Assembly (NCBI RefSeq): GCF_044324875.1
Contig: NZ_CP172185.1
Length of the DNA: 64,000 bases
Reading direction: 5' to 3' (one strand)
Origin: Escherichia coli
GTDB lineage: Bacteria; Pseudomonadota; Gammaproteobacteria; Enterobacterales; Enterobacteriaceae
Below the pieces are notes generated by a model. The model worked only from the letters and a program-made list of their open reading frames with translations, was not told the origin of the DNA and did no database searches. The number at the start of each line of letters is the position of its first letter. The stretch's first letter is position 1. Below are positions 14,719 through 63,646 of this stretch, piece by piece. Position numbers and translations under genes: made by a program.

Positions 14719-14878
14719 ATCGCTGTTGAGGCACATCTTAACGGCGAAAAATCTTTTGTCAAACCCGATTTTTAAATTTCCCAACTGTTTGCCGTTTCTA
14801 TCAACAGTTTGTTGCATTTGCAGACAATTTGTTGGCGAAAATCTTTGCAGCTTTGCTGATTCTCCCTCATTATTTGAA

Positions 14879-16366
14879 ATGTGGTTTCACTTTCTGCAAT
14901 TAAGGTCGGCTTTGAATATCTCCTCTGCTTTACGCCAGGTTGTTCACGGCACTCGCTGGCACGCCAAACGCAAGAGTTACAAAGTGTTGTTCTGGCGCGA
15001 GATAACCCCGCTTGCTGTTCCTATCTTCATGGAGAACGCCTGTGTCCTGTTGATGGGTGTCCTGAGCACTTTTCTGGTCAGCTGGCTGGGAAAAGATGCG
15101 ATGGCCGGCGTGGGATTGGCGGACAGCTTCAATATGGTCATTATGGCATTTTTTGCGGCTATCGATCTTGGTACCACTGTCGTTGTGGCATTTAGTCTCG
15201 GTAAGCGGGATCGACGACGAGCGAGGGTGGCGACGCGGCAGTCATTGGTGATCATGACGTTGTTTGCCGTGCTGTTGGCAACGCTTATTCATCATTTTGG
15301 CGAACAAATTATTGATTTCGTTGCGGGTGATGCCACGACAGAAGTTAAAGCACTGGCGTTGACTTATCTGGAGCTGACGGTACTCAGTTATCCAGCAGCT
15401 GCCATCACTTTGATTGGTAGTGGTGCACTTCGTGGTGCAGGGAATACGAAAATACCGCTACTGATTAACGGTAGCCTGAATATTCTTAATATTATTATTA
15501 GCGGCATATTGATTTACGGCCTTTTCTCCTGGCCGGGACTGGGATTTGTCGGGGCTGGGTTGGGTTTAACCATTTCTCGTTATATTGGCGCAGTGGCAAT
15601 TTTGTGGGTGCTGGCGATTGGTTTTAATCCTGCGCTAAGGATTTCGTTAAAGAGCTATTTTAAACCGCTGAATTTTAGCATTATCTGGGAAGTCATGGGG
15701 ATTGGTATTCCAGCAAGTGTCGAATCAGTATTATTTACCAGTGGTCGGTTATTAACCCAAATGTTCGTTGCCGGGATGGGGACCAGTGTTATTGCCGGAA
15801 ATTTTATCGCGTTTTCAATTGCGGCTCTTATCAACTTACCCGGAAGTGCGCTCGGCTCTGCTTCTACGATCATTACAGGCCGAAGGTTGGGAGTAGGGCA
15901 GATAGCGCAAGCAGAGATTCAGTTGCGGCATGTGTTCTGGCTGTCCACTCTTGGATTAACGGCCATCGCCTGGCTAACGGCTCCCTTTGCCGGGGTTATG
16001 GCATCGTTTTACACCCAGGATCCACAGGTTAAACATGTCGTTGTGATTCTGATTTGGCTAAATGCTTTATTTATGCCTATTTGGTCTGCCTCATGGGTGC
16101 TACCCGCTGGATTTAAGGGTGCTCGCGATGCACGTTACGCCATGTGGGTTTCTATGTTGAGCATGTGGGGTTGCCGGGTTGTAGTCGGTTATGTGCTGGG
16201 AATCATGCTTGGCTGGGGTGTGGTTGGTGTCTGGATGGGAATGTTTGCCGACTGGGCTGTGCGGGCCGTGCTGTTTTACTGGCGAATGGTTACTGGACGT
16301 TGGCTGTGGAAATATCCTCGACCTGAGCCGCAAAAGTGTGAAAAAAAGCCAGTTGTGTCGGAATAA
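14879..16366 (+). CDS. yeeO: MATE-family efflux transporter
   Basis: ORF track frame 14726..16366; start moved to an internal Met to give the roughly 495 aa I recall for YeeO; many transmembrane segments. Confidence 0.85.
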   Translation: MWFHFLQLRSALNISSALRQVVHGTRWHAKRKSYKVLFWREITPLAVPIFMENACVLLMGVLSTFLVSWLGKDAMAGVGLADSFNMVIMAFFAAIDLGTTVVVAFSLGKRDRRRARVATRQSLVIMTLFAVLLATLIHHFGEQIIDFVAGDATTEVKALALTYLELTVLSYPAAAITLIGSGALRGAGNTKIPLLINGSLNILNIIISGILIYGLFSWPGLGFVGAGLGLTISRYIGAVAILWVLAIGFNPALRISLKSYFKPLNFSIIWEVMGIGIPASVESVLFTSGRLLTQMFVAGMGTSVIAGNFIAFSIAALINLPGSALGSASTIITGRRLGVGQIAQAEIQLRHVFWLSTLGLTAIAWLTAPFAGVMASFYTQDPQVKHVVVILIWLNALFMPIWSASWVLPAGFKGARDARYAMWVSMLSMWGCRVVVGYVLGIMLGWGVVGVWMGMFADWAVRAVLFYWRMVTGRWLWKYPRPEPQKCEKKPVVSE

Positions 16367-43934: not shown

Positions 43935-44344
43935 TTGCCGGAGGCGCTTATGGCAAAAGTATTTACACAAGAAGAGCGGGAAAAATTAAAGGGCAGGTTG
44001 TCGAACTCGTGCGACAGAGCGGGCGCGAGACGTTACGACAACTGGAAGCGAAAACAGGTGCGACAAGATATCTGCTGAGCGTTCTTGCCAGAGAGCTGGT
44101 TGCCAGTGGTGATGTATACAATTCAGGCTACGGATTATTCCCGTCTGAGCAGGCGCGTAAAGACTGGCAAAACGCCCGCAAAAAACTATCAAGGGAAAAG
44201 GTGAAAAAACCGGTTGTGGTTGATCCTGACCTTATCTGGTCATTACCAGACGGAGAAATACGCCGCTACGACAGGCGCCTGAATATAATCTGTCGCGAGT
44301 GCCGGAAGAGCGAAGCTATGCAGCGTGTACTGGCATTTTATTAA
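43931..44344 (+). CDS. Hypothetical phage protein
   Basis: 137 aa ORF with GTG start overlapping the upstream stop. Confidence 0.45.
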   Translation: MIAGGAYGKSIYTRRAGKIKGQVVELVRQSGRETLRQLEAKTGATRYLLSVLARELVASGDVYNSGYGLFPSEQARKDWQNARKKLSREKVKKPVVVDPDLIWSLPDGEIRRYDRRLNIICRECRKSEAMQRVLAFY

Positions 44345-44549
44345 GGAAATGTTAGGTATTTTAGACGTTACTAGATTAAAGAGCATTAGTTCAGATGTGA
44401 ATTGACATTTTCATGGCGCAGGGTAGAGCTAGTGTGGTTGTCCGCTTTGCGTCAAAACCAGATATTACCAGATTTAGACATATATTCCCGATAGCCCTGC
44501 TCTGATGCTACACTCTGTGCTATTTTCATGACCCCCAATAAAAATATTT

Positions 44550-45215
44550 ATGACTATTGCTGATTTCAAACGGCCTAAATTGGAGCTCCCGAACGGGGCA
44601 AACAAACTACTACTGCACTCTTGCTGTGCTCCATGTTCCGGTGAAGTGATGGAGGCGCTTCAGGCCTCGGGAATCGACTACACCATCTTTTTCTACAACC
44701 CGAACATTCATCCTCAGAAAGAGTATTTAATTCGTAAGGATGAAAATATTCGCTTTGCTGAACAACACGGCGTGCCGTTTATCGATGCTGATTACGACAC
44801 CGACAACTGGTTTGAACGTGCCAAAGGAATGGAATGGGAGCCTGAGAGGGGGATCCGTTGTACCATGTGTTTTGACATGCGTTTTGAGCGGACAGCGTTG
44901 TACGCTGCTGAAAATGGTTTCAGTGTGATCAGCAGTTCACTGGGCATTTCACGCTGGAAAAATATGCAGCAGGTTAACGAGTGTGGGCGGCGAGCTGTTG
45001 CGCATTATCCGGGTATGGTGTACTGGGATTATAACTGGCGCAAGCAGGGCGGCTCGTCCCGTATGATTGAAATCAGCAAGCGCGAAAAATTCTATCAGCA
45101 GGAATATTGTGGCTGTGTGTATTCTCTGCGCGATACCAATCTACACCGCAAATCTCAGGGACGCCCTCTTATAAAAATTGGCCAACTCCACTACGGAAAA
45201 GAAGAGAAGGAGTGA
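44550..45215 (+). CDS. DUF208 / QueH-like protein (putative B12-independent epoxyqueuosine reductase)
   Basis: 221 aa with N-terminal [14 protein letters not shown] motif and further conserved Cys (…[10 protein letters not shown]…, …EYCGCVYS…), resembling what I remember of the DUF208/QueH family; own promoter-like region upstream. Confidence 0.55.
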
Positions 45216-45451
45216 TTTTATGGATCACCTTTCTGATTGATTTCATATTGGCGAGGTGACGGGAGTTAAGTAGAATTGCTGCGGGTGCTTGAGGCTATCT
45301 GCCTCGGGCATGAACACCAACGGCAGATAGAGAAAAGCCCCAGTTAACATTATGCGTCCTGCAAGACGCTTAACATTAATCTGAGGCAGAATCTATGTCT
45401 AGCAAATGTAGGTTAGCCTCTTACGTGCCGAAAGGCAAGGAGAAGCAGGCT

Positions 45452-51939: not shown

Positions 51940-52422
51940 ATGTCAGGACCCCCGAAAACCCCGCCACGCCTGCATTTGATACGAGGCAACCCCTCAAAGC
52001 GCCCCGTTAAAGACCCAAAAAAAACCGCTAAAAAGGATGAAAAAGGTCTCCCTAAAATTCCGCAACATTTAGGGTCGCAGGGGAAGTACTGGTTCAGGCG
52101 AATGGCGGAAGAACTGAATGCGGAAGGGATCATTTCTCAGCTTGATGCGCGTGCACTCGAGTTACTGGTGGAAGCCTACACCGAATACCGGCATTACTGC
52201 GAAACACTCGATGTTGAGGGGTATACCTACCGCACGGAAACGCAGAACGGTGATGTGCTGATTAAGGCACACCCGGCTGCTGCGATGAAAGCGGATGCCT
52301 GGAAGCGGATCCGGGCGATGCTTGCAGAATTTGGTATGTCACCGGCAAGCCGGGCGAAAGTAAATACCGCCGGACCGGATGATGTTGATCCGCTGGCGGA
52401 GCTTTTAAAAGCGAGAGACTGA
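51940..52422 (+). CDS. Terminase small subunit
   Basis: 160 aa ORF immediately preceding and abutting the terminase large subunit. Confidence 0.7.
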   Translation: MSGPPKTPPRLHLIRGNPSKRPVKDPKKTAKKDEKGLPKIPQHLGSQGKYWFRRMAEELNAEGIISQLDARALELLVEAYTEYRHYCETLDVEGYTYRTETQNGDVLIKAHPAAAMKADAWKRIRAMLAEFGMSPASRAKVNTAGPDDVDPLAELLKARD

Positions 52423-54179
52423 TGGCAAAAGTGGCTGACGGGATCCGCTACGCCGAACGTGTTGTTGCAGGAGAAATTGTTGCTGGCGAATTTGTCCGCC
52501 TAGCCTGCCAGCGTTTTCTTGATGATCTGAAGTACGGCGAAGAGCGGGGGATTTATTTCAGTGAACCCCGTGCGCAGCACATCCTGAATTTCTACAAATT
52601 TGTGCCCCATGTGAAAGGGGCGCTGGCAGGCCAGCCCATTGAGTTGATGGACTGGCATGTATTTATCCTCATTAATATTTTTGGTTTTGTCATTCCGCTG
52701 GTGAATGAAGAGACCGGGGAAGTTGTCATGCGCAGCGATGGCAGCGGACGCCCGGTGATGGTGCGCCGGTTCCGGACGGCGTACAACGAAGTCGCCCGTA
52801 AAAACGCAAAATCAACCCTGTCATCGGGTATCGGCCTGTATATGACGGGGGCAGATGGTGAAGGCGGTGCTGAGGTTTATTCAGCCGCAACCACGCGTGA
52901 TCAGGCCAGAATTGTGTTTGAAGACGCCAAAAATATGGTCAGAAAAGCCCGGTCGACACTCGGGCGGTTGTTTGATTTCAACAAGCTGGCGATTTACCAG
53001 GAGCAGAGCGCATCAAAATTTGAGCCGCTTTCCTCGGATGCAAACAATCTGGACGGTCTGAACATCCACTGCGCCATTATTGATGAGCTGCATGCACATA
53101 AAACCCGTGACGTGTGGGACGTTCTGGAAACGGCAACCGGTGCCCGTCTGCAGTCCCTTTTATTTGGTATCACCACGGCAGGGTTTAACAAGGAAGGGAT
53201 TTGTTACGAGCAGCGTGATTACGCCATCAAGGTATTGCGTGGCTATAACAGCGACGTGGAGGGCGCGGTAAAAGACGACTCCTACTTTGCGATTATTTAC
53301 ACCCTCGATGAGGGAGATGATCCGTTTGATGAAACGGTCTGGCAGAAAGCGAATCCCGGCCTGGGCATCTGTAAACGCTGGGATGATCTGCGTCGCCTGG
53401 CGAAAAAAGCGAAAGAACAGGTCTCTGCGCGGGTGAATTTTTTTACCAAACACATGAATGTGTGGGTCACTGCCGAATCAGCCTGGATGGACATGATTAA
53501 GTGGGAGAAGTGCGAATATATTGCTCCACGACATGAGCTGAAAACATATCCCATGTGGGTCGGCGTTGACCTTGCTCATAAGATTGATATCTGTGCAGCG
53601 GCAAAACTCTGGCGAACGGATAACGGGCATGTTCATGCCGATTTTAAATTCTGGCTTCCGGAAGGACGGCTGGAACGATGCTCGCGGCAGCAGGCAGAAC
53701 TTTACCGGAAGTGGGCGGAGATGGATAAGCTGATTCTGACGGATGGTGATGTTATCGATCATGGCCAGATAAAAAGTGACTTACTGGAATGGACTGGTGG
53801 TGAAAACCTCAGGGAACTGGGATTTGACCCGTGGAGCGCGATGCAGTTCAGCCTGGCACTGGCTGAAGAAGGGATACCGCTGGTGGAGGTTCCGCAGACG
53901 GTTCGCAATCTGTCAGAGGCCATGAAGGAAACGGAATCACTGGTCTATGCCGGGCGTTTCCATCACAGCAATCACCCGGTCATGAACTGGATGATGTCTA
54001 ACGTTACGGTGAAACCGGACAAAAACGACAATATCTTCCCGAATAAATGCACGCCGGAAGCCAAAATCGACGGCCCTGTTGCGCTTTTTACAGCCATGAG
54101 CCGCCTTCTGGTAAATGGCGGGGACGTGAATGACTTTCTGTCCACGCTTGATCCTGATGAGGACCTGTTAATTCTGTGA
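52422..54179 (+). CDS. Terminase large subunit
   Basis: 585 aa; size and position fit a terminase ATPase/nuclease. Confidence 0.85.
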   Translation: MAKVADGIRYAERVVAGEIVAGEFVRLACQRFLDDLKYGEERGIYFSEPRAQHILNFYKFVPHVKGALAGQPIELMDWHVFILINIFGFVIPLVNEETGEVVMRSDGSGRPVMVRRFRTAYNEVARKNAKSTLSSGIGLYMTGADGEGGAEVYSAATTRDQARIVFEDAKNMVRKARSTLGRLFDFNKLAIYQEQSASKFEPLSSDANNLDGLNIHCAIIDELHAHKTRDVWDVLETATGARLQSLLFGITTAGFNKEGICYEQRDYAIKVLRGYNSDVEGAVKDDSYFAIIYTLDEGDDPFDETVWQKANPGLGICKRWDDLRRLAKKAKEQVSARVNFFTKHMNVWVTAESAWMDMIKWEKCEYIAPRHELKTYPMWVGVDLAHKIDICAAAKLWRTDNGHVHADFKFWLPEGRLERCSRQQAELYRKWAEMDKLILTDGDVIDHGQIKSDLLEWTGGENLRELGFDPWSAMQFSLALAEEGIPLVEVPQTVRNLSEAMKETESLVYAGRFHHSNHPVMNWMMSNVTVKPDKNDNIFPNKCTPEAKIDGPVALFTAMSRLLVNGGDVNDFLSTLDPDEDLLIL

Positions 54180-58567: not shown

Positions 58568-58908
58568 GGGAGGCCGCACTGTATTCCCGGCTCTCTGAGC
58601 TGGCCGGAGGACAGGTTTACCCTTATGTGGTCCCGCTGACGGAGGGAAAGCCTGCGGTATCTCCGCCGTGGCTGGTGTTTTCTGTGGTGTCTGATACCGC
58701 ATCTGATGTGCTTGATGGTCAGGCTGAATCCAGAATTACCGTGCAGATCGATGTCTGGGCAAGGATACCTGATGACGCAGATAATATCCGTGAGCAGGCG
58801 CTTGATGCGGTAAGGCAACTTGCACCCTCCGTTATTTCTAAAACGCAGGGTTATGATCCTGATTCCCGTCTGAGCAGAGCCACGCTTGAATTTCAGGTAA
58901 TAGCCTGA
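58564..58908 (+). CDS. Tail-component protein
   Basis: 114 aa; positional. Confidence 0.5.
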   Translation: MREAALYSRLSELAGGQVYPYVVPLTEGKPAVSPPWLVFSVVSDTASDVLDGQAESRITVQIDVWARIPDDADNIREQALDAVRQLAPSVISKTQGYDPDSRLSRATLEFQVIA

Positions 58909-58967
58909 GGTCGTTAATGATTTTACCCACCCGCCGCTGGCGGGTTTTTTATTTTCAGGAGACGAGT

Positions 58968-59672
58968 ATGCCCTCGAATTTTGAACGTTCGCAACTGACG
59001 AAAATTATGATTTCGTCCGTACCGGTAAGGAAAGAAACACTGGATTCTGCCAGTTTTCTTGAACTGAGCTGTACGATTAAAGAGGTTCAGTTTACCGCCG
59101 GGCAGAAACAGGACATTGACGTCACCACGCTGTGTTCTGTTGAGCAGGAGAATATCAACGGTCTTGGGGCTGCTTCAGAGATTTCCATGTCAGGAAATTT
59201 TTATGTCAATGCTGCCCAGAACGCGTTGCGCAGTGCCTATGACAATGACGCCACGTATGGCTTTAAAGTTATTTTTCCGTCAGGCAACGGATTTACCTTT
59301 ATGGCAGAGGTGCGTCAGCATACCTGGTCTGCAGGTACTAACGGCGTGGTGGCTGCCACATTTTCCCTTCGCCTGAAAGGTAAGCCTGTGCTGACCACAC
59401 AGTTGCTGAAAGTTAAGCTTGACTTAAAAAGTACGCTGAAAGTCTCTACCGGCAATAAACTGGAAATGGTGGTTGAGGCTGCCGGTGGTGTGCCGCCTTA
59501 TTCTTATGTCTGGAAGAAAGGTGGTTCTCCTGTTGCCGGACAGACGGCGGCAACGTTCAGTAAGGCATCCGCAGTATCCGGTGATGCCGGTGCGTATACC
59601 TGCGAGATTTCTGATTCAGCAAGCCCTGTTAACAAGGTGACCTCCACTTCCTGCACTGTTACCGTCAGTTAA
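58968..59672 (+). CDS. Major tail protein with C-terminal Ig-like domain
   Basis: ORF track frame 58917..59672; start at MPSNFERSQ... after CAGGAGACGAGT; C-terminal segment ...GGVPPYSYVWKKGGSPVAGQTAATFSKASAVSGDAGAYTCEISD... looks Ig-like. Confidence 0.65.
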   Translation: MPSNFERSQLTKIMISSVPVRKETLDSASFLELSCTIKEVQFTAGQKQDIDVTTLCSVEQENINGLGAASEISMSGNFYVNAAQNALRSAYDNDATYGFKVIFPSGNGFTFMAEVRQHTWSAGTNGVVAATFSLRLKGKPVLTTQLLKVKLDLKSTLKVSTGNKLEMVVEAAGGVPPYSYVWKKGGSPVAGQTAATFSKASAVSGDAGAYTCEISDSASPVNKVTSTSCTVTVS

Positions 59673-60058
59673 TGAGGATAGATGTGATGACTAAAAATAT
59701 CCGTAATCTGGCACTGGCAACGATGTCGGGGTTTCGCCATAAAACTGTTGATGTGCCTGAATGGGAAGGGGCAACGGTTGTGTTACGGGAACCTTCTGCA
59801 GAAGCCTGGTTGCGCTGGCAGGAGATCGTTAAAGCAAAAGATGATGAGACACCGTTATCCGTTGCGGAGCGCGCCCGCCGAAATCTGAAAGCGGATGTTG
59901 AACTGTTCATCGATGTTCTGTGTGATACCGGACTGCAACCTGTATTTTCAGAGGATGATCGTGAACAGGTGATTGCCGTGTATGGCCCGGTGCATGCGCG
60001 GCTTCTTCGTCAGTCACTGGAACTGATCAGTGATGCCGGAGAGGTTAAAAAAAAGTAG
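59672..60058 (+). CDS. Tail assembly chaperone (gpG-like)
   Basis: 128 aa between major tail and tape measure genes; ends in a slippery A AAA AAG heptamer. Confidence 0.6.
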   Translation: MRIDVMTKNIRNLALATMSGFRHKTVDVPEWEGATVVLREPSAEAWLRWQEIVKAKDDETPLSVAERARRNLKADVELFIDVLCDTGLQPVFSEDDREQVIAVYGPVHARLLRQSLELISDAGEVKKK

Positions 60059-60360
60059 CGCTTCCGGGGATGCGTTTTCTGATGATGCTGGCGCTCAGGA
60101 TGGGGCGCACATTGTCAGAATTACGCCGGGAAATGTCCGCATCAGAAATCATGATGTGGGCAGAATTTGACAGGTTCAGCCCGCTGGGGGACGAACGGGC
60201 TGATATCCGGGCTGCCCAGATAGTTTCTGCGGTTTACGGTGCGCAGGGTGTCAAAGTACCACTGAATGACGCGCTTCTTCAGTGGGAACAAGAGCTGACA
60301 GAAGGCGCCTCAGATCCATTTGCCGGACTGGAAAACGCGCTTTTAACCGTGTCTCAGTGA
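60055..60360 (+). CDS. Tail assembly chaperone extension (gpT-like), predicted to be reached by -1 frameshift
   Basis: Downstream ORF is in the -1 frame relative to the gpG-like gene and open from the slip site. Confidence 0.5.
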   Translation, partial: VALPGMRFLMMLALRMGRTLSELRREMSASEIMMWAEFDRFSPLGDERADIRAAQIVSAVYGAQGVKVPLNDALLQWEQELTEGASDPFAGLENALLTVSQ

Positions 60361-60400
60361 GTCAACATAACCGCTTCGGCGGTTTTTTTTCGTCCGGAGA

Positions 60401-63400
60401 GTGAGTGTGGCGACATTACGTGAACTGATTATTAAAATCTCGGCAAATTCCCGGTCATTCCAGTCAGAGATCTCCCGGGCTTCGCGTATGGGGCAGGATT
60501 ACTACCGTACCATGCAGAACGGAGGCCGACAGTCCGCTGCTGTATCCCATGAAATGCGGCGTGCACTGGCAGAAGTGACGGATCAGATAAATACAGCTAA
60601 ATCTTCGGCACTGAACATGGCGGGGGCATTTGCCGGGGCTTTTGCTACCGGTCATCTTATTTCTCTCGCCGATGAGTGGAATTCAGTAAATGCCCGTCTG
60701 AAGCAGGCCTCACAGTCCAGTGATGATTTTCAGTCATCACAGCGTGAATTAATGGCGATCAGCCAGAGAACGGGGACGGCTTTTTCTGATAACGCCAGCC
60801 TTTTTGCCCGCTCTGCAGCTTCCATGCGGGAGTATGGTTACAGTTCTGAGGAGGTACTGAAAGTCACCGAGGCGATCTCCACGGGCCTGAAATTATCCGG
60901 TGCCAGTACAGCAGAAGCCAGTTCGGTGATCACGCAGTTCAGTCAGGCTCTGGCGCAGGGAGTGCTGCGCGGTGAAGAGTTTAACTCGGTGAATGAGAGT
61001 GGCGATCGTGTTATTCGTGCTCTGGCTGCGGGAATGGGAGTTGCCCGTAAGGATCTGAAGGCCATGGCGGATAACGGAAAGTTGACCGCCGATAAGGTTG
61101 TTCCTGCACTGATTAGTCAGCTTGGGGCATTACGTGATGAATATGCGGCAATGCCTGATACGGTTTCATCCTCTGCAACCAAAGTTGAAAACGCCTTTAT
61201 GGCCTGGGTTGGTGGTGCGAACGAGGCAAGCGGAGTGACGAAGACGCTCTCCGGTGTGCTGAATGGTATTGCAGGCAATATTGACACCGTGGCAACCGCT
61301 GCCGGTGCTCTGGTTGCCGTCGGGGTAGCCCGATATTTTGGCAATATGGCGTCGTCTGCTGGATCTGCAACTGCCGGATTAATTACTGCAGCCAGAAACG
61401 AAGTGGCTCTTGCTGAAGTGCAACTTCGGGGGACACAGATAGCAACCGCCAGGGCGCGTGCGGCGGTTTATCGTGCGCAACAGGCGGTTGTTGCTGCTCG
61501 CGGTACCGAAAGGCAGGCCGCAGCAGAAGCGAAGCTGACAGCTGCCCAGGCGTCACTTACCCGTAATATTGCGGCCAGAACAGCGGCACAGACAACGCTG
61601 AATAATGTTACGTCAGTGGGGAGTCGTTTATTAAGTGGCGCGCTGGGGCTGGTTGGTGGTGTGCCGGGGCTTGTCATGCTGGGGGCTGCGGCCTGGTACA
61701 CGATGTATCAGAATCAGGAGCAGGCCAGAGAATCTGCACGCCAGTATGCCGCAACAATCGACGAAATTCGCCAGAAAACGTCGGCAATGTCGCTTCCTGA
61801 AGCGTCAGATAATGAGGAAAAGACGCGACAGGCACTGAAGGAGCAAAACAGGTTAATTGACGAGCAGAAAAGTAAGATTAAATCCTTACAGGAAAAAATT
61901 GCTGGCTATCAGTATGTGCTGGCAAATCCGGGTTGGACAACCGATAACGGTTTTATGATTAACCACATGACGTCGGTAAAAACTGTCACAGAAGGGCTTG
62001 CAGAAGCAACAAATCAACTGGCAGTTGAACAGTCTCGCCTCACTCAAATGCAGGGCAAAGCGCAATCCATTCAGGATGTGCTTGCCGGGCTGGAGGAGCG
62101 ACGGGTGGCGTTGATCCGTCAACAGGCAGCGGAACAAAACAAAGCGTATCAGTCCCTGTTGATCATGAATGGGCAGCATACCGAGTTTAATCGCCTTCTC
62201 GGGCTCGGTAATGAATTACTTCAGCAGCGACAGGGGCTGGTGAATGTACCGTTACGGCTACCACAGGCAACCCTGGATGATAAACAGCAGACCGCACTGA
62301 ATAACAGCGAGCGCGAACTGGCTCTGTCCCGCCTGAAGGGGGAAGCCCGTGAGCGTGCCCGCCTGGGTTATGCTGCGGATGATCTCGGCTTTGTGGGAGA
62401 GGCGTATCAGACAGCAAGACTGAATTATATAAATAACTCACTGGATGCATGGCGAAATAACCAGGCAAATAAACCCAAAGCGCATAAAAAGACCGAAGCG
62501 GAAAAAACAGAAGATACTTATAAGCGACTGATTAAACAGCAAAAAGAGCAAATAGCACTGGCAGGGCAGAATACTGAACTGGCTAAGATGAAATATCAGG
62601 TCAGCAAGGGCGAATTATCAACCCTGTCAGAAGCGCAGAAAAAAACGCTTTTGCAGAATGCAGCACTCATCGACCAGAAAAAGATTCGTGAGCAGCTTGC
62701 TGCGTATGAGAGCAGTCTGGCGGACAGTAATGCCAGTGTCAGAGCATCAAATGAGGCTCAGTTACTGGGATATGGTGAAGGCTCACGGATGCGTGAACGA
62801 CTTCAGGAAATGTGGAGCATCCGGCAGGAGTTTGAGCAGAAAAATAACGAGCTACTGAGACAGTATCAGGCCGGAGAAATTGAAGAAGCCCTGTGGAAAC
62901 AGGAAAAATCTCTGAATGAAAAATATCTGGAAGAGCGTCTCAGCGATCAGCAGGATTATTATGCAAAGGCTGATGCTTTACGCAGTAACTGGAATGCCGG
63001 ACTCCAGGAGGGACTGACGAACTGGGCAGACAGTGCCACCGATTATGCTTCGCAGGCGGCAGATGCTGTCGTTTCCACTATGGACGGGCTGGTATCAAAT
63101 ATTTCCGATGCACTGGCCGGAAATGTTGTGGACTGGAGAAACTGGGGGAGTTCAATTCTCCAGGAAGTTTCAAAAATTCTGATGAACGCTGCCATCGTTA
63201 ACGGGCTGAAGTCACTTTCCAAAAGCATGTCCGGTGCCGGAGGATGGCTTGGTACAGTCGGCGACTGGCTTTCCGGTGCAGTGGCAAACGCAAAAGGTGG
63301 TGTTTATACATCGGCAAATCTGAGTGCTTACAGTAACACCATTGTGGATACCCCGACGTATTTTGCTTTTGCGAAAGGTGCCGGGCTGATGGGCGAGGCC

Positions 63401-63646
63401 GGGCCTGAAGCTATCATGCCACTGACTCGGGCAGCGGACGGCTCTCTTGGAGTCAGAGCCATTGGCAATGTGAATGGTGGCGGTGGATTTGTTTATTCTC
63501 CCGTGTATCACATCAGCATTCAGAATCAGGGGAGCAATGGCGAGATAGATGCGCGCTCAGCCAGGGGACTGGTGGATCTGATCGACAGCAGGGTTGTGTC
63601 AGTTATGCAGTCATCGCGTCGGGATGGAGGATTGTTGAGTGGGTGA
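60401..63646 (+). CDS. Tail tape measure protein
   Basis: 1081 aa, Ala/Gln-rich with long coiled-coil-like stretches, located after the chaperone pair. Confidence 0.85.
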   Translation: MSVATLRELIIKISANSRSFQSEISRASRMGQDYYRTMQNGGRQSAAVSHEMRRALAEVTDQINTAKSSALNMAGAFAGAFATGHLISLADEWNSVNARLKQASQSSDDFQSSQRELMAISQRTGTAFSDNASLFARSAASMREYGYSSEEVLKVTEAISTGLKLSGASTAEASSVITQFSQALAQGVLRGEEFNSVNESGDRVIRALAAGMGVARKDLKAMADNGKLTADKVVPALISQLGALRDEYAAMPDTVSSSATKVENAFMAWVGGANEASGVTKTLSGVLNGIAGNIDTVATAAGALVAVGVARYFGNMASSAGSATAGLITAARNEVALAEVQLRGTQIATARARAAVYRAQQAVVAARGTERQAAAEAKLTAAQASLTRNIAARTAAQTTLNNVTSVGSRLLSGALGLVGGVPGLVMLGAAAWYTMYQNQEQARESARQYAATIDEIRQKTSAMSLPEASDNEEKTRQALKEQNRLIDEQKSKIKSLQEKIAGYQYVLANPGWTTDNGFMINHMTSVKTVTEGLAEATNQLAVEQSRLTQMQGKAQSIQDVLAGLEERRVALIRQQAAEQNKAYQSLLIMNGQHTEFNRLLGLGNELLQQRQGLVNVPLRLPQATLDDKQQTALNNSERELALSRLKGEARERARLGYAADDLGFVGEAYQTARLNYINNSLDAWRNNQANKPKAHKKTEAEKTEDTYKRLIKQQKEQIALAGQNTELAKMKYQVSKGELSTLSEAQKKTLLQNAALIDQKKIREQLAAYESSLADSNASVRASNEAQLLGYGEGSRMRERLQEMWSIRQEFEQKNNELLRQYQAGEIEEALWKQEKSLNEKYLEERLSDQQDYYAKADALRSNWNAGLQEGLTNWADSATDYASQAADAVVSTMDGLVSNISDALAGNVVDWRNWGSSILQEVSKILMNAAIVNGLKSLSKSMSGAGGWLGTVGDWLSGAVANAKGGVYTSANLSAYSNTIVDTPTYFAFAKGAGLMGEAGPEAIMPLTRAADGSLGVRAIGNVNGGGGFVYSPVYHISIQNQGSNGEIDARSARGLVDLIDSRVVSVMQSSRRDGGLLSG

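Follow-up and report, generated by a model that had tools for sequence, protein, structure and literature searches.

The tail assembly chaperone gene of an HK97-like Escherichia coli prophage ends in a probable programmed −1 frameshift site

When ribosomes reach the end of the tail assembly chaperone gene of an HK97-like lambdoid prophage in Escherichia coli, do they all stop there, or do some slip back by one nucleotide (nt) and read on into the gene that follows? The question is raised by a 64,000-nt stretch of E. coli DNA (hereafter the window; all coordinates and the strand are those of this stretch), in which the chaperone gene, G, ends in a slippery heptamer and a stop codon, and the next open reading frame (ORF), T, follows in the −1 frame. 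An earlier reading of this DNA (the original prediction) had suggested that the arrangement is the G/GT frameshift that is conserved in long-tailed phages, a conservation that is said to go back to work of Levin in 1993 and of Xu, Hendrix and Duda in 2004. Our analysis supports this view, and we put the probability that the site is a programmed −1 ribosomal frameshift, giving both G and a GT fusion in this prophage, at almost nine in ten. The locus adds an unannotated case to a textbook class of recoding events, already annotated in phage HK97 and measured in homologues, and it leaves the current understanding of such events unchanged.

The geometry of the site is tight. On the + strand, positions 60041–60058 read GAG GTT AAA AAA AAG TAG in the frame of G, exactly as originally described, and the translation of G terminates in LISDAGEVKKK. 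The heptamer A_AAA_AAG (60049–60055) is in the phase of the X_XXY_YYZ motif and abuts the 0-frame TAG (60056–60058), which is both the stop codon of G and the 3′ limit of the productive slip window, while the 5′ limit is set by a TAA in the −1 frame (60046–60048). Exact translation of the −1 frame gives CRRG, this stop and then KKVALPGMRFLMM (also given as KKVALPGMRFLMMLALRMGRT); from 60049 to 60357 the frame is open, such that no −1-frame stop stands between the slip site and the downstream ORF. That ORF has its first ATG at 60070 and ends with the TGA at 60358–60360, and because 60070 mod 3 is 1 and 59687 (the start of G) mod 3 is 2, it lies in the −1 frame, in agreement with what had been predicted. 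A −1 slip is thus productive within exactly 7 nt, and the heptamer occupies all of them. Given the TAA at 60046–60048, the open −1 frame, and the TAG at 60056, G and T can be joined by a −1 slip only in the heptamer, and the shift site is therefore fixed by the sequence itself.

The products can be written out from these coordinates. G (59687–60058, + strand) encodes 123 amino acids (aa; 13.9 kDa) from the ATG at 59687 that is used in RefSeq; other in-frame starts are a GTG at 59684 and an ATG at 59672, at which the ORF listing begins. The T segment that is read after the slip (60055–60360, + strand) comprises 101 codons, from VALPGMRFLMMLALRMGRT to TVSQ, followed by the TGA. The predicted GT fusion (59687–60055 plus the T segment) is 224 aa long (25.1 kDa) and runs AGEVKKK-VALPGMRFLMMLALRMGRT, with VKKKVALPGMRF as the stretch that spans the junction; the residues encoded by 60055–60069 in the −1 frame have no start codon of their own. 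The adenines of the heptamer lie in an A8 homopolymer (60047–60054, + strand), which is prone to insertions and deletions and is a candidate substrate for slippage by RNA polymerase.

What the two ORFs encode argues for the same arrangement. In searches against Pfam, G matches Phage_TAC_1 (PF06222) over its full length (E = 3.1e-58; 195.5 bits against a gathering cut-off of 25), and it also matches the PHROG family phrog_344, ‘tail assembly chaperone’ (2e-44); the Prokaryotic Genome Annotation Pipeline (PGAP) calls it as coding sequence (CDS) WP_045147191.1. The −1 ORF matches Phage_tail_T (PF06223; E = 3.8e-19; 69.3 bits against a cut-off of 25.9). A single PHROG profile of 224 positions, phrog_14766, spans both halves, with positions 1–121 covering the upstream ORF and positions 123–221 the −1 ORF, as is expected of a family built from fused proteins. 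G and T are flanked by the major tail gene on one side and the tape measure gene on the other, and the description of G as a tail assembly chaperone is borne out by both family and position. The term ‘gpG-like’ is true by position and function only: judged by its sequence, the G part belongs to the Phage_TAC_1 family of HK97 gp13 and not to the Phage_TAC_2 family of lambda.

The frame relation and the slip site are conserved well beyond the close relatives of this prophage. A tblastn search with G led to 199 phage records, from which ten diverse phages were taken and compared together with lambda (11 relatives, down to ~30% identity, with hosts in E. coli, Klebsiella, Serratia, Halomonas, and Burkholderia). 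T lies in the −1 frame relative to G in all 11, and each time a shift-prone site is found inside the overlap. This site is of the heptamer type in every relative except the Klebsiella phage: A_AAA_AAG in Stx2 phage 1717 (directly before TAG), Serratia OS31, and Burkholderia phi1026b and Bcep176; G_GGA_AAG in mEp390 and lambda; A_AAA_AAA / A_AAA_AAC in Halomonas H4907; and G_GAA_AAG in HK97, HK446, and SaltyDalty. When the 11 predicted family fusions are aligned, most junctions fall at the column of the window’s slip lysine and the others within ~2 residues of it. After the junction, a linker in which a proline is conserved leads into the motif [RKQ]-F-L-M-x-LALR[ML]G[RK]T; for instance, the junction is K/VALPGMRFLMM in the window, K/VSTPGVKFLMS in HK97, and K/VKMPGMQFLMA in the Klebsiella phage. 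The linker is thus conserved as protein, though it has no start codon of its own. Within one family, then, A_AAA_AAG, A_AAA_AAA, G_GGA_AAG, G_GAA_AAG, and A_GCA_AAG occur at or near one homologous lysine, and such a series of slip sites could help in studying how slip strength is tuned to the required G:GT ratio.

The Klebsiella phage, ST13-OXA48phi12.4, has a layout of its own (locus L007, 1596–1605). Its slip window is likewise 7 nt long and reads A_GCA_AAG TAA, with an A_AAG core and without a tandem heptamer, and a single-tRNA slip on A_AAG directly before the stop is the only possible route to GT. The downstream linker, VKMPGMQFLM, is conserved, and the fusion is probably still made.

A denser sample of relatives came from IMG/VR. 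A first search for relatives, based on an alignment of nine sequences, yielded no conserved stretch to search with, and the 80 loci described here were retrieved from an alignment of six enterobacterial sequences. The layout of the window, with A_AAA_AAG, TAG, and a 7-nt slip window, is found in 57 of the 80 loci; a further two have A_AAA_AAA before TAG and 18 have an HK97-type site, such that a functional layout is kept in 77/80. One locus is disrupted: its G ORF departs from the query after residue ~106, and there is no T ORF behind it. The remaining two (L051 and L056, at ~1860–1875, homologous to window positions 60045–60058) carry a one-base deletion in the run and have A7 instead of A8 (gttaaaaaaagtag); in these, G continues in the +1 frame to a length of 160 aa, and a −1 slip no longer leads into T. 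Either the tail module has been inactivated by a homopolymer indel or the A7 run is a sequencing error.

The closest annotated precedent is HK97 itself. Its gp13 and gp14 (NP_037708 and NP_037707) resemble the pair in the window in family (Phage_TAC_1 and Phage_tail_T, with 64% identity in the G part), in their place between the major tail and tape measure genes, and in the length of the fusion (224 aa). The HK97 slip lysine falls at the same alignment column and has identical spacing to the F-L-M motif, and the fusion that we built at the homologous AAG lysine equals NP_037707.1 exactly. The HK97 record states that gp14 is ‘translated due to a -1 frameshift’, and HK446 gp11 and Bcep176 gp69′ are also recorded as joined CDSs. 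HK97 differs in having the imperfect tandem G_GAA_AAG about five codons before the stop of G, with an overlap of 49 nt against 7 nt in the window, and in having a moron, gp15, that separates T from the tape measure gene and has no counterpart in the window. As a separate observation, the HK97-type G_GAA_AAG (L012, 1335–1341; also HK446, SaltyDalty, and the 18 IMG/VR loci) is not a canonical X_XXY_YYZ site, and the P-site tRNA-Glu would have to re-pair on GGA with a mismatch.

Homologous sites have also been measured. A cluster named ‘phage tail assembly chaperone’, comprising 41 frameshifted genes similar to an HK97 protein, has been described, and two of its cassettes were tested in a GST-MBP reporter in E. 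coli (Antonov 2013, PMC3711429). A Stx/O157-type cassette, in which A_AAA_AAG is followed by TAG, gave 7% frameshifting, and a cassette with GCG_GGA_AAG_CCG_TAA gave 6% ± 0.61 (PMC3711429). The former matches Stx2 phage 1717 over the compared stretch, and the latter is of the mEp390 type. The 1717 cassette is like the window in having A_AAA_AAG directly before TAG, T in the −1 frame, and a G part that is 67% identical; it differs in its A run (6, in AGA AAA AAG, against 8), in its −1 window (22 nt against 7 nt), and in a shorter T, which extends 80 codons past the stop of G and would give a predicted fusion of 204 aa. With these reporters, the PF06223 match of the −1 ORF, phrog_14766, and the HK97 annotation, the earlier assignment of the site to the conserved G/GT type is well founded.

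In E. coli, no heptamer is more prone to shifting than A_AAA_AAG, since the one tRNA-Lys of the cell (mnm5s2U34) forms a better pair with AAA than with AAG; A_AAG alone is a minimal −1 site (Atkins 2016, PMC5009743). The same heptamer and the same logic of tRNA-Lys re-pairing are found in E. coli dnaX (gamma/tau), where the shift truncates the protein, whereas in the window it would extend it. The dnaX site reaches ~50% by means of an upstream Shine–Dalgarno-like element and a downstream stem-loop, neither of which is supported at the window site.

Lambda provides the functional precedent. There, gpG and gpGT are made at a ratio of ~30:1, which is needed for tail assembly, T being produced only as a GT fusion; both proteins associate with the tape measure protein, recruitment of the major tail protein falls to the T domain, and neither is found in the virion (PMC5009743). 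An altered G:GT ratio in mnmA or tusA–E mutants, whose tRNA-Lys lacks s2U34, has been reported for lambda (Maynard 2012, PMC3296357). Frameshifting between G and T is widely conserved among long-tailed phages (PMC5009743). Lambda is like the window in that its −1 shift occurs near the end of G and its T part belongs to PF06223; it differs in that its G matches Phage_TAC_2 (PF06894) only, its heptamer is G_GGA_AAG, and its overlap is 61 nt. A BLASTP comparison of the window G with lambda G found no similarity (E = 4.9), the window G matching only PF06222, and a pairwise BLASTP comparison of the two T proteins was not significant, their kinship being visible only at the level of the Pfam profile.

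On this basis, we postulate the following course of events. Most ribosomes would stop at the TAG at 60056 and release the 123-aa G, and a small fraction, probably a few per cent, would slip by −1 on A_AAA_AAG (60049–60055). In doing so, two tRNA-Lys would re-pair from AAA-AAG to AAA-AAA, so that the next codon becomes GTA (60055–60057), and the shifted ribosomes would read GTA GCG CTT CCG GGG ATG and onwards to the TGA at 60358, giving the 224-aa GT. If lambda is a guide, the tape measure protein may be coated by numerous G and a small number of GT molecules, with the T domain recruiting the major tail protein, and the G:GT ratio, as set by the frequency of the slip, would be what matters for tail assembly. 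We infer that the shift here is ribosomal rather than transcriptional and that its efficiency lies in this range.

Several points weigh against this interpretation or limit what can be drawn from it. No stimulator could be supported: an RNAalifold analysis of the 11 relatives, anchored on the F-L-M motif, gave zero conserved pairs. A predicted local hairpin at 60064–60129 on the + strand (minimum free energy −30.2 kcal/mol, z = −2.2, with 8/200 shuffles folding as well) was rejected as a stimulator, there being no consensus structure in the relatives. The Shine–Dalgarno-like GGAGAGG at 60038–60044 (+ strand) was likewise rejected, as its spacing of 4 nt from the heptamer is too short and it is not conserved in L066–L069; it varies in close relatives (GGCGAGG, GGTGAGG, and GGAGAAG) and is absent in L067–L069 (GCTGAAGTTATT). 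The spacing of the corresponding stimulator in dnaX is ~10 nt, longer than at the window site. The lambda slip site is not known to require a stimulator, and the window site resembles it in this respect. Since there is no conserved stimulator, the efficiency of the shift is not predictable from sequence. In addition, PGAP annotates G (59687–60058) in E. coli TUM1886 and, as a gene of its own, a ‘phage tail assembly protein T’ of 92 aa (60082–60360), with no ribosomal-slippage join. A collection of ~15 billion proteins does not contain the exact 224-aa fusion, though G and the 92-aa T each occur in it on hundreds of contigs. The missing fusion reflects annotation practice and is not evidence against the fusion. 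Finally, the insertion of one A in the A8 run, giving an A9 mRNA, would yield the identical fusion, EVKKKVALPG, without any ribosomal shift.

This last point opens the alternative that GT is made mainly by transcriptional slippage, with RNA polymerase adding an extra A on the A8 run and the ribosomal shift being minor or absent in this clade. Runs of more than seven A have been implicated in programmed transcriptional realignment, and in magnesium chelatase reporters A7, A9, and A11 gave 10%, 40%, and 63%, respectively (PMC3711429); slippage is also efficient on runs of nine A or T (PMC5009743), and A9 is found before TAG in the IMG/VR loci L072 and L073 and also occurs in Halomonas phage H4907. 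Across the family, however, the element that is kept is a ribosomal slip site and not a long run, the run being A4 in HK97, A3 in mEp390 and lambda, and A6 in Stx2 1717 and the Burkholderia phages, and frameshifting in the cassettes was still 7% with A6 and 6% with A3 (PMC3711429). The terminal G of the heptamer, which matters for the AAG-to-AAA re-pairing of tRNA-Lys and not for polymerase slippage, is kept in 57/59 close-clade loci, and A_AAA_AAG is, for E. coli ribosomes, the most shift-prone heptamer (PMC5009743). We therefore regard a mainly transcriptional origin as unlikely. A broader version, which we think doubtful, is that in this clade GT comes substantially from RNA-polymerase slippage or from slippage stimulated by the adjacent stop codon, and not from the classical tandem shift of the ribosome. 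The setting would be the slip window that is squeezed down to the heptamer between the −1-frame TAA and the 0-frame TAG, inside A8 (A9 in some relatives), and the A7 variants in L051 and L056 prompt the further speculation that mutations in the A run might switch tail assembly on and off.

It could also be argued that no frameshift is needed at all, and that G and T are independent genes, T starting at the ATG at 60082 (or 60070), possibly by termination and reinitiation after the TAG. In-frame ATGs do stand 12 and 24 nt past the stop of G, and the exact 92-aa T of PGAP, starting at 60082, has been called on 483 contigs. ATG 60082/60085 is conserved in the relatives; these codons encode the F-L-M-M motif, and it is at one of them that PGAP starts T. 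Against independent genes, conservation in the −1 frame across the family extends to the residues encoded 5′ of these ATGs (P-G-x-[RKQ]-F-L), which in HK97 come before any codon that could start translation. Several relatives (L052, L067–L069, and L072) have ATA or ATT at the place of ATG 60070 with the linker staying open, which speaks against its use as a start codon, and there is no good Shine–Dalgarno sequence 5′ of either ATG 60070 or ATG 60082. Moreover, the −1 phase of T is invariant in 11/11 relatives, the heptamer fills the only productive window, and homologues have been annotated or measured as fusions, lambda T among them being made as GT (PMC5009743). That G and T are two independent genes with no need of a fusion is, in our estimation, very improbable.

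Could the heptamer instead be a chance by-product of a lysine-rich C-terminus (KKK), with no programmed role? Such motifs are not rare here. Counting both strands, the window contains 30 copies of AAAAAAG (17.3 ± 4 in shuffles). The ORFs of 80 aa or longer together hold 71 heptamers of the type X_XXY_YYZ (Y = A or T) that are in phase; 23 of these have at least 40 open −1 codons downstream, the majority in ORFs without annotation support. Because other in-phase heptamers with long −1 extensions occur in the window (for example, T_TTA_AAA at 52404), we rejected geometry alone as proof. What lifts the site above chance is the identity of both ORFs, the 7-nt window, and a slip position that is conserved throughout the family, down to ~30% identity; with the reporter data from homologues, these leave the chance explanation a close to negligible probability.

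A programmed frameshift at this locus would have a bearing on annotation. The chromosome of E. coli TUM1886 (NZ_CP128970.1) matches the region at 100% identity. At ≥80% identity the region is carried by ~900 of 5,426 complete E. coli genomes, and eleven GenBank phages, Evi, phi467, and the vB_EcoS series among them, have it at 96–98%. In the TUM1886 record T is listed in a form truncated at its 5′ end, and G and T are annotated separately in all 12 genomes among the matches listed. A joined CDS with a ribosomal-slippage qualifier would correct the missing entry for the 224-aa GT. In another record, that of phage vB_EcoM-606R7 (ON470580.1; L001, 1588–2261), three small ‘tail assembly chaperone’ CDSs are placed over G and T, and the one in the +1 frame (1934–2071) is almost certainly spurious.

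The surrounding genes are those of an HK97-like lambdoid prophage: the small terminase is of the P27 type, the prohead protease and capsid are those of HK97, and the tail-tip genes L, K, I, and J are lambda-like; yodB and zinT adjoin. Directly 5′ of G lies the major tail (tube) protein gene (58968–59672, + strand; Pfam and PGAP), and directly 3′ of T the tape measure protein gene (60407–63646, + strand), whose 1,081-aa product has HK97_TLTM, TMP_3, and lambda C-terminal domains; a gene for a gpM-like minor tail protein follows. At its C-terminus, the major tail protein has an Ig-like domain encoded in frame (Pfam Ig_2, Ig_3, and I-set; residues ~172–250 of the longer ORF). Terminator-like hairpins with T runs lie 5′ of the major tail gene (58929–58955; ACCCGCCGCTGGCGGGT plus T5) and between T and the tape measure gene (60369–60392; AACCGCTTCGGCGGTT plus T8). 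Both match ‘putative terminators’ at corresponding places in the HK97 and HK446 records, and the stretch from 58800 to 60700 contains 10 terminator-like sites, against 2.3 in shuffles.

Two other heptamers in the window may be described here. The T_TTA_AAA at 52404 (52404–52424) is in phase and lies three codons 5′ of the stop of the small terminase gene, with the large terminase gene in the −1 frame; the TGATG overlap of these two genes likely represents ordinary translational coupling. An A_AAA_AAG at 16342–16348 lies five codons 5′ of the stop of a 546-aa transporter-like ORF (14726–16366). From it the −1 frame runs for 42 codons, with nothing gene-like downstream in the ORF listing, and this heptamer is most likely there by chance.

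Elsewhere in the prophage, a gene for epoxyqueuosine reductase, queH, which functions in tRNA modification, is found at ~44176–44841 of the window (L013, 2577–3242), and the toxin gene hokD at ~45078–45233 (L013, 3479–3634). Both sit between the replication and late-regulation modules of the prophage.

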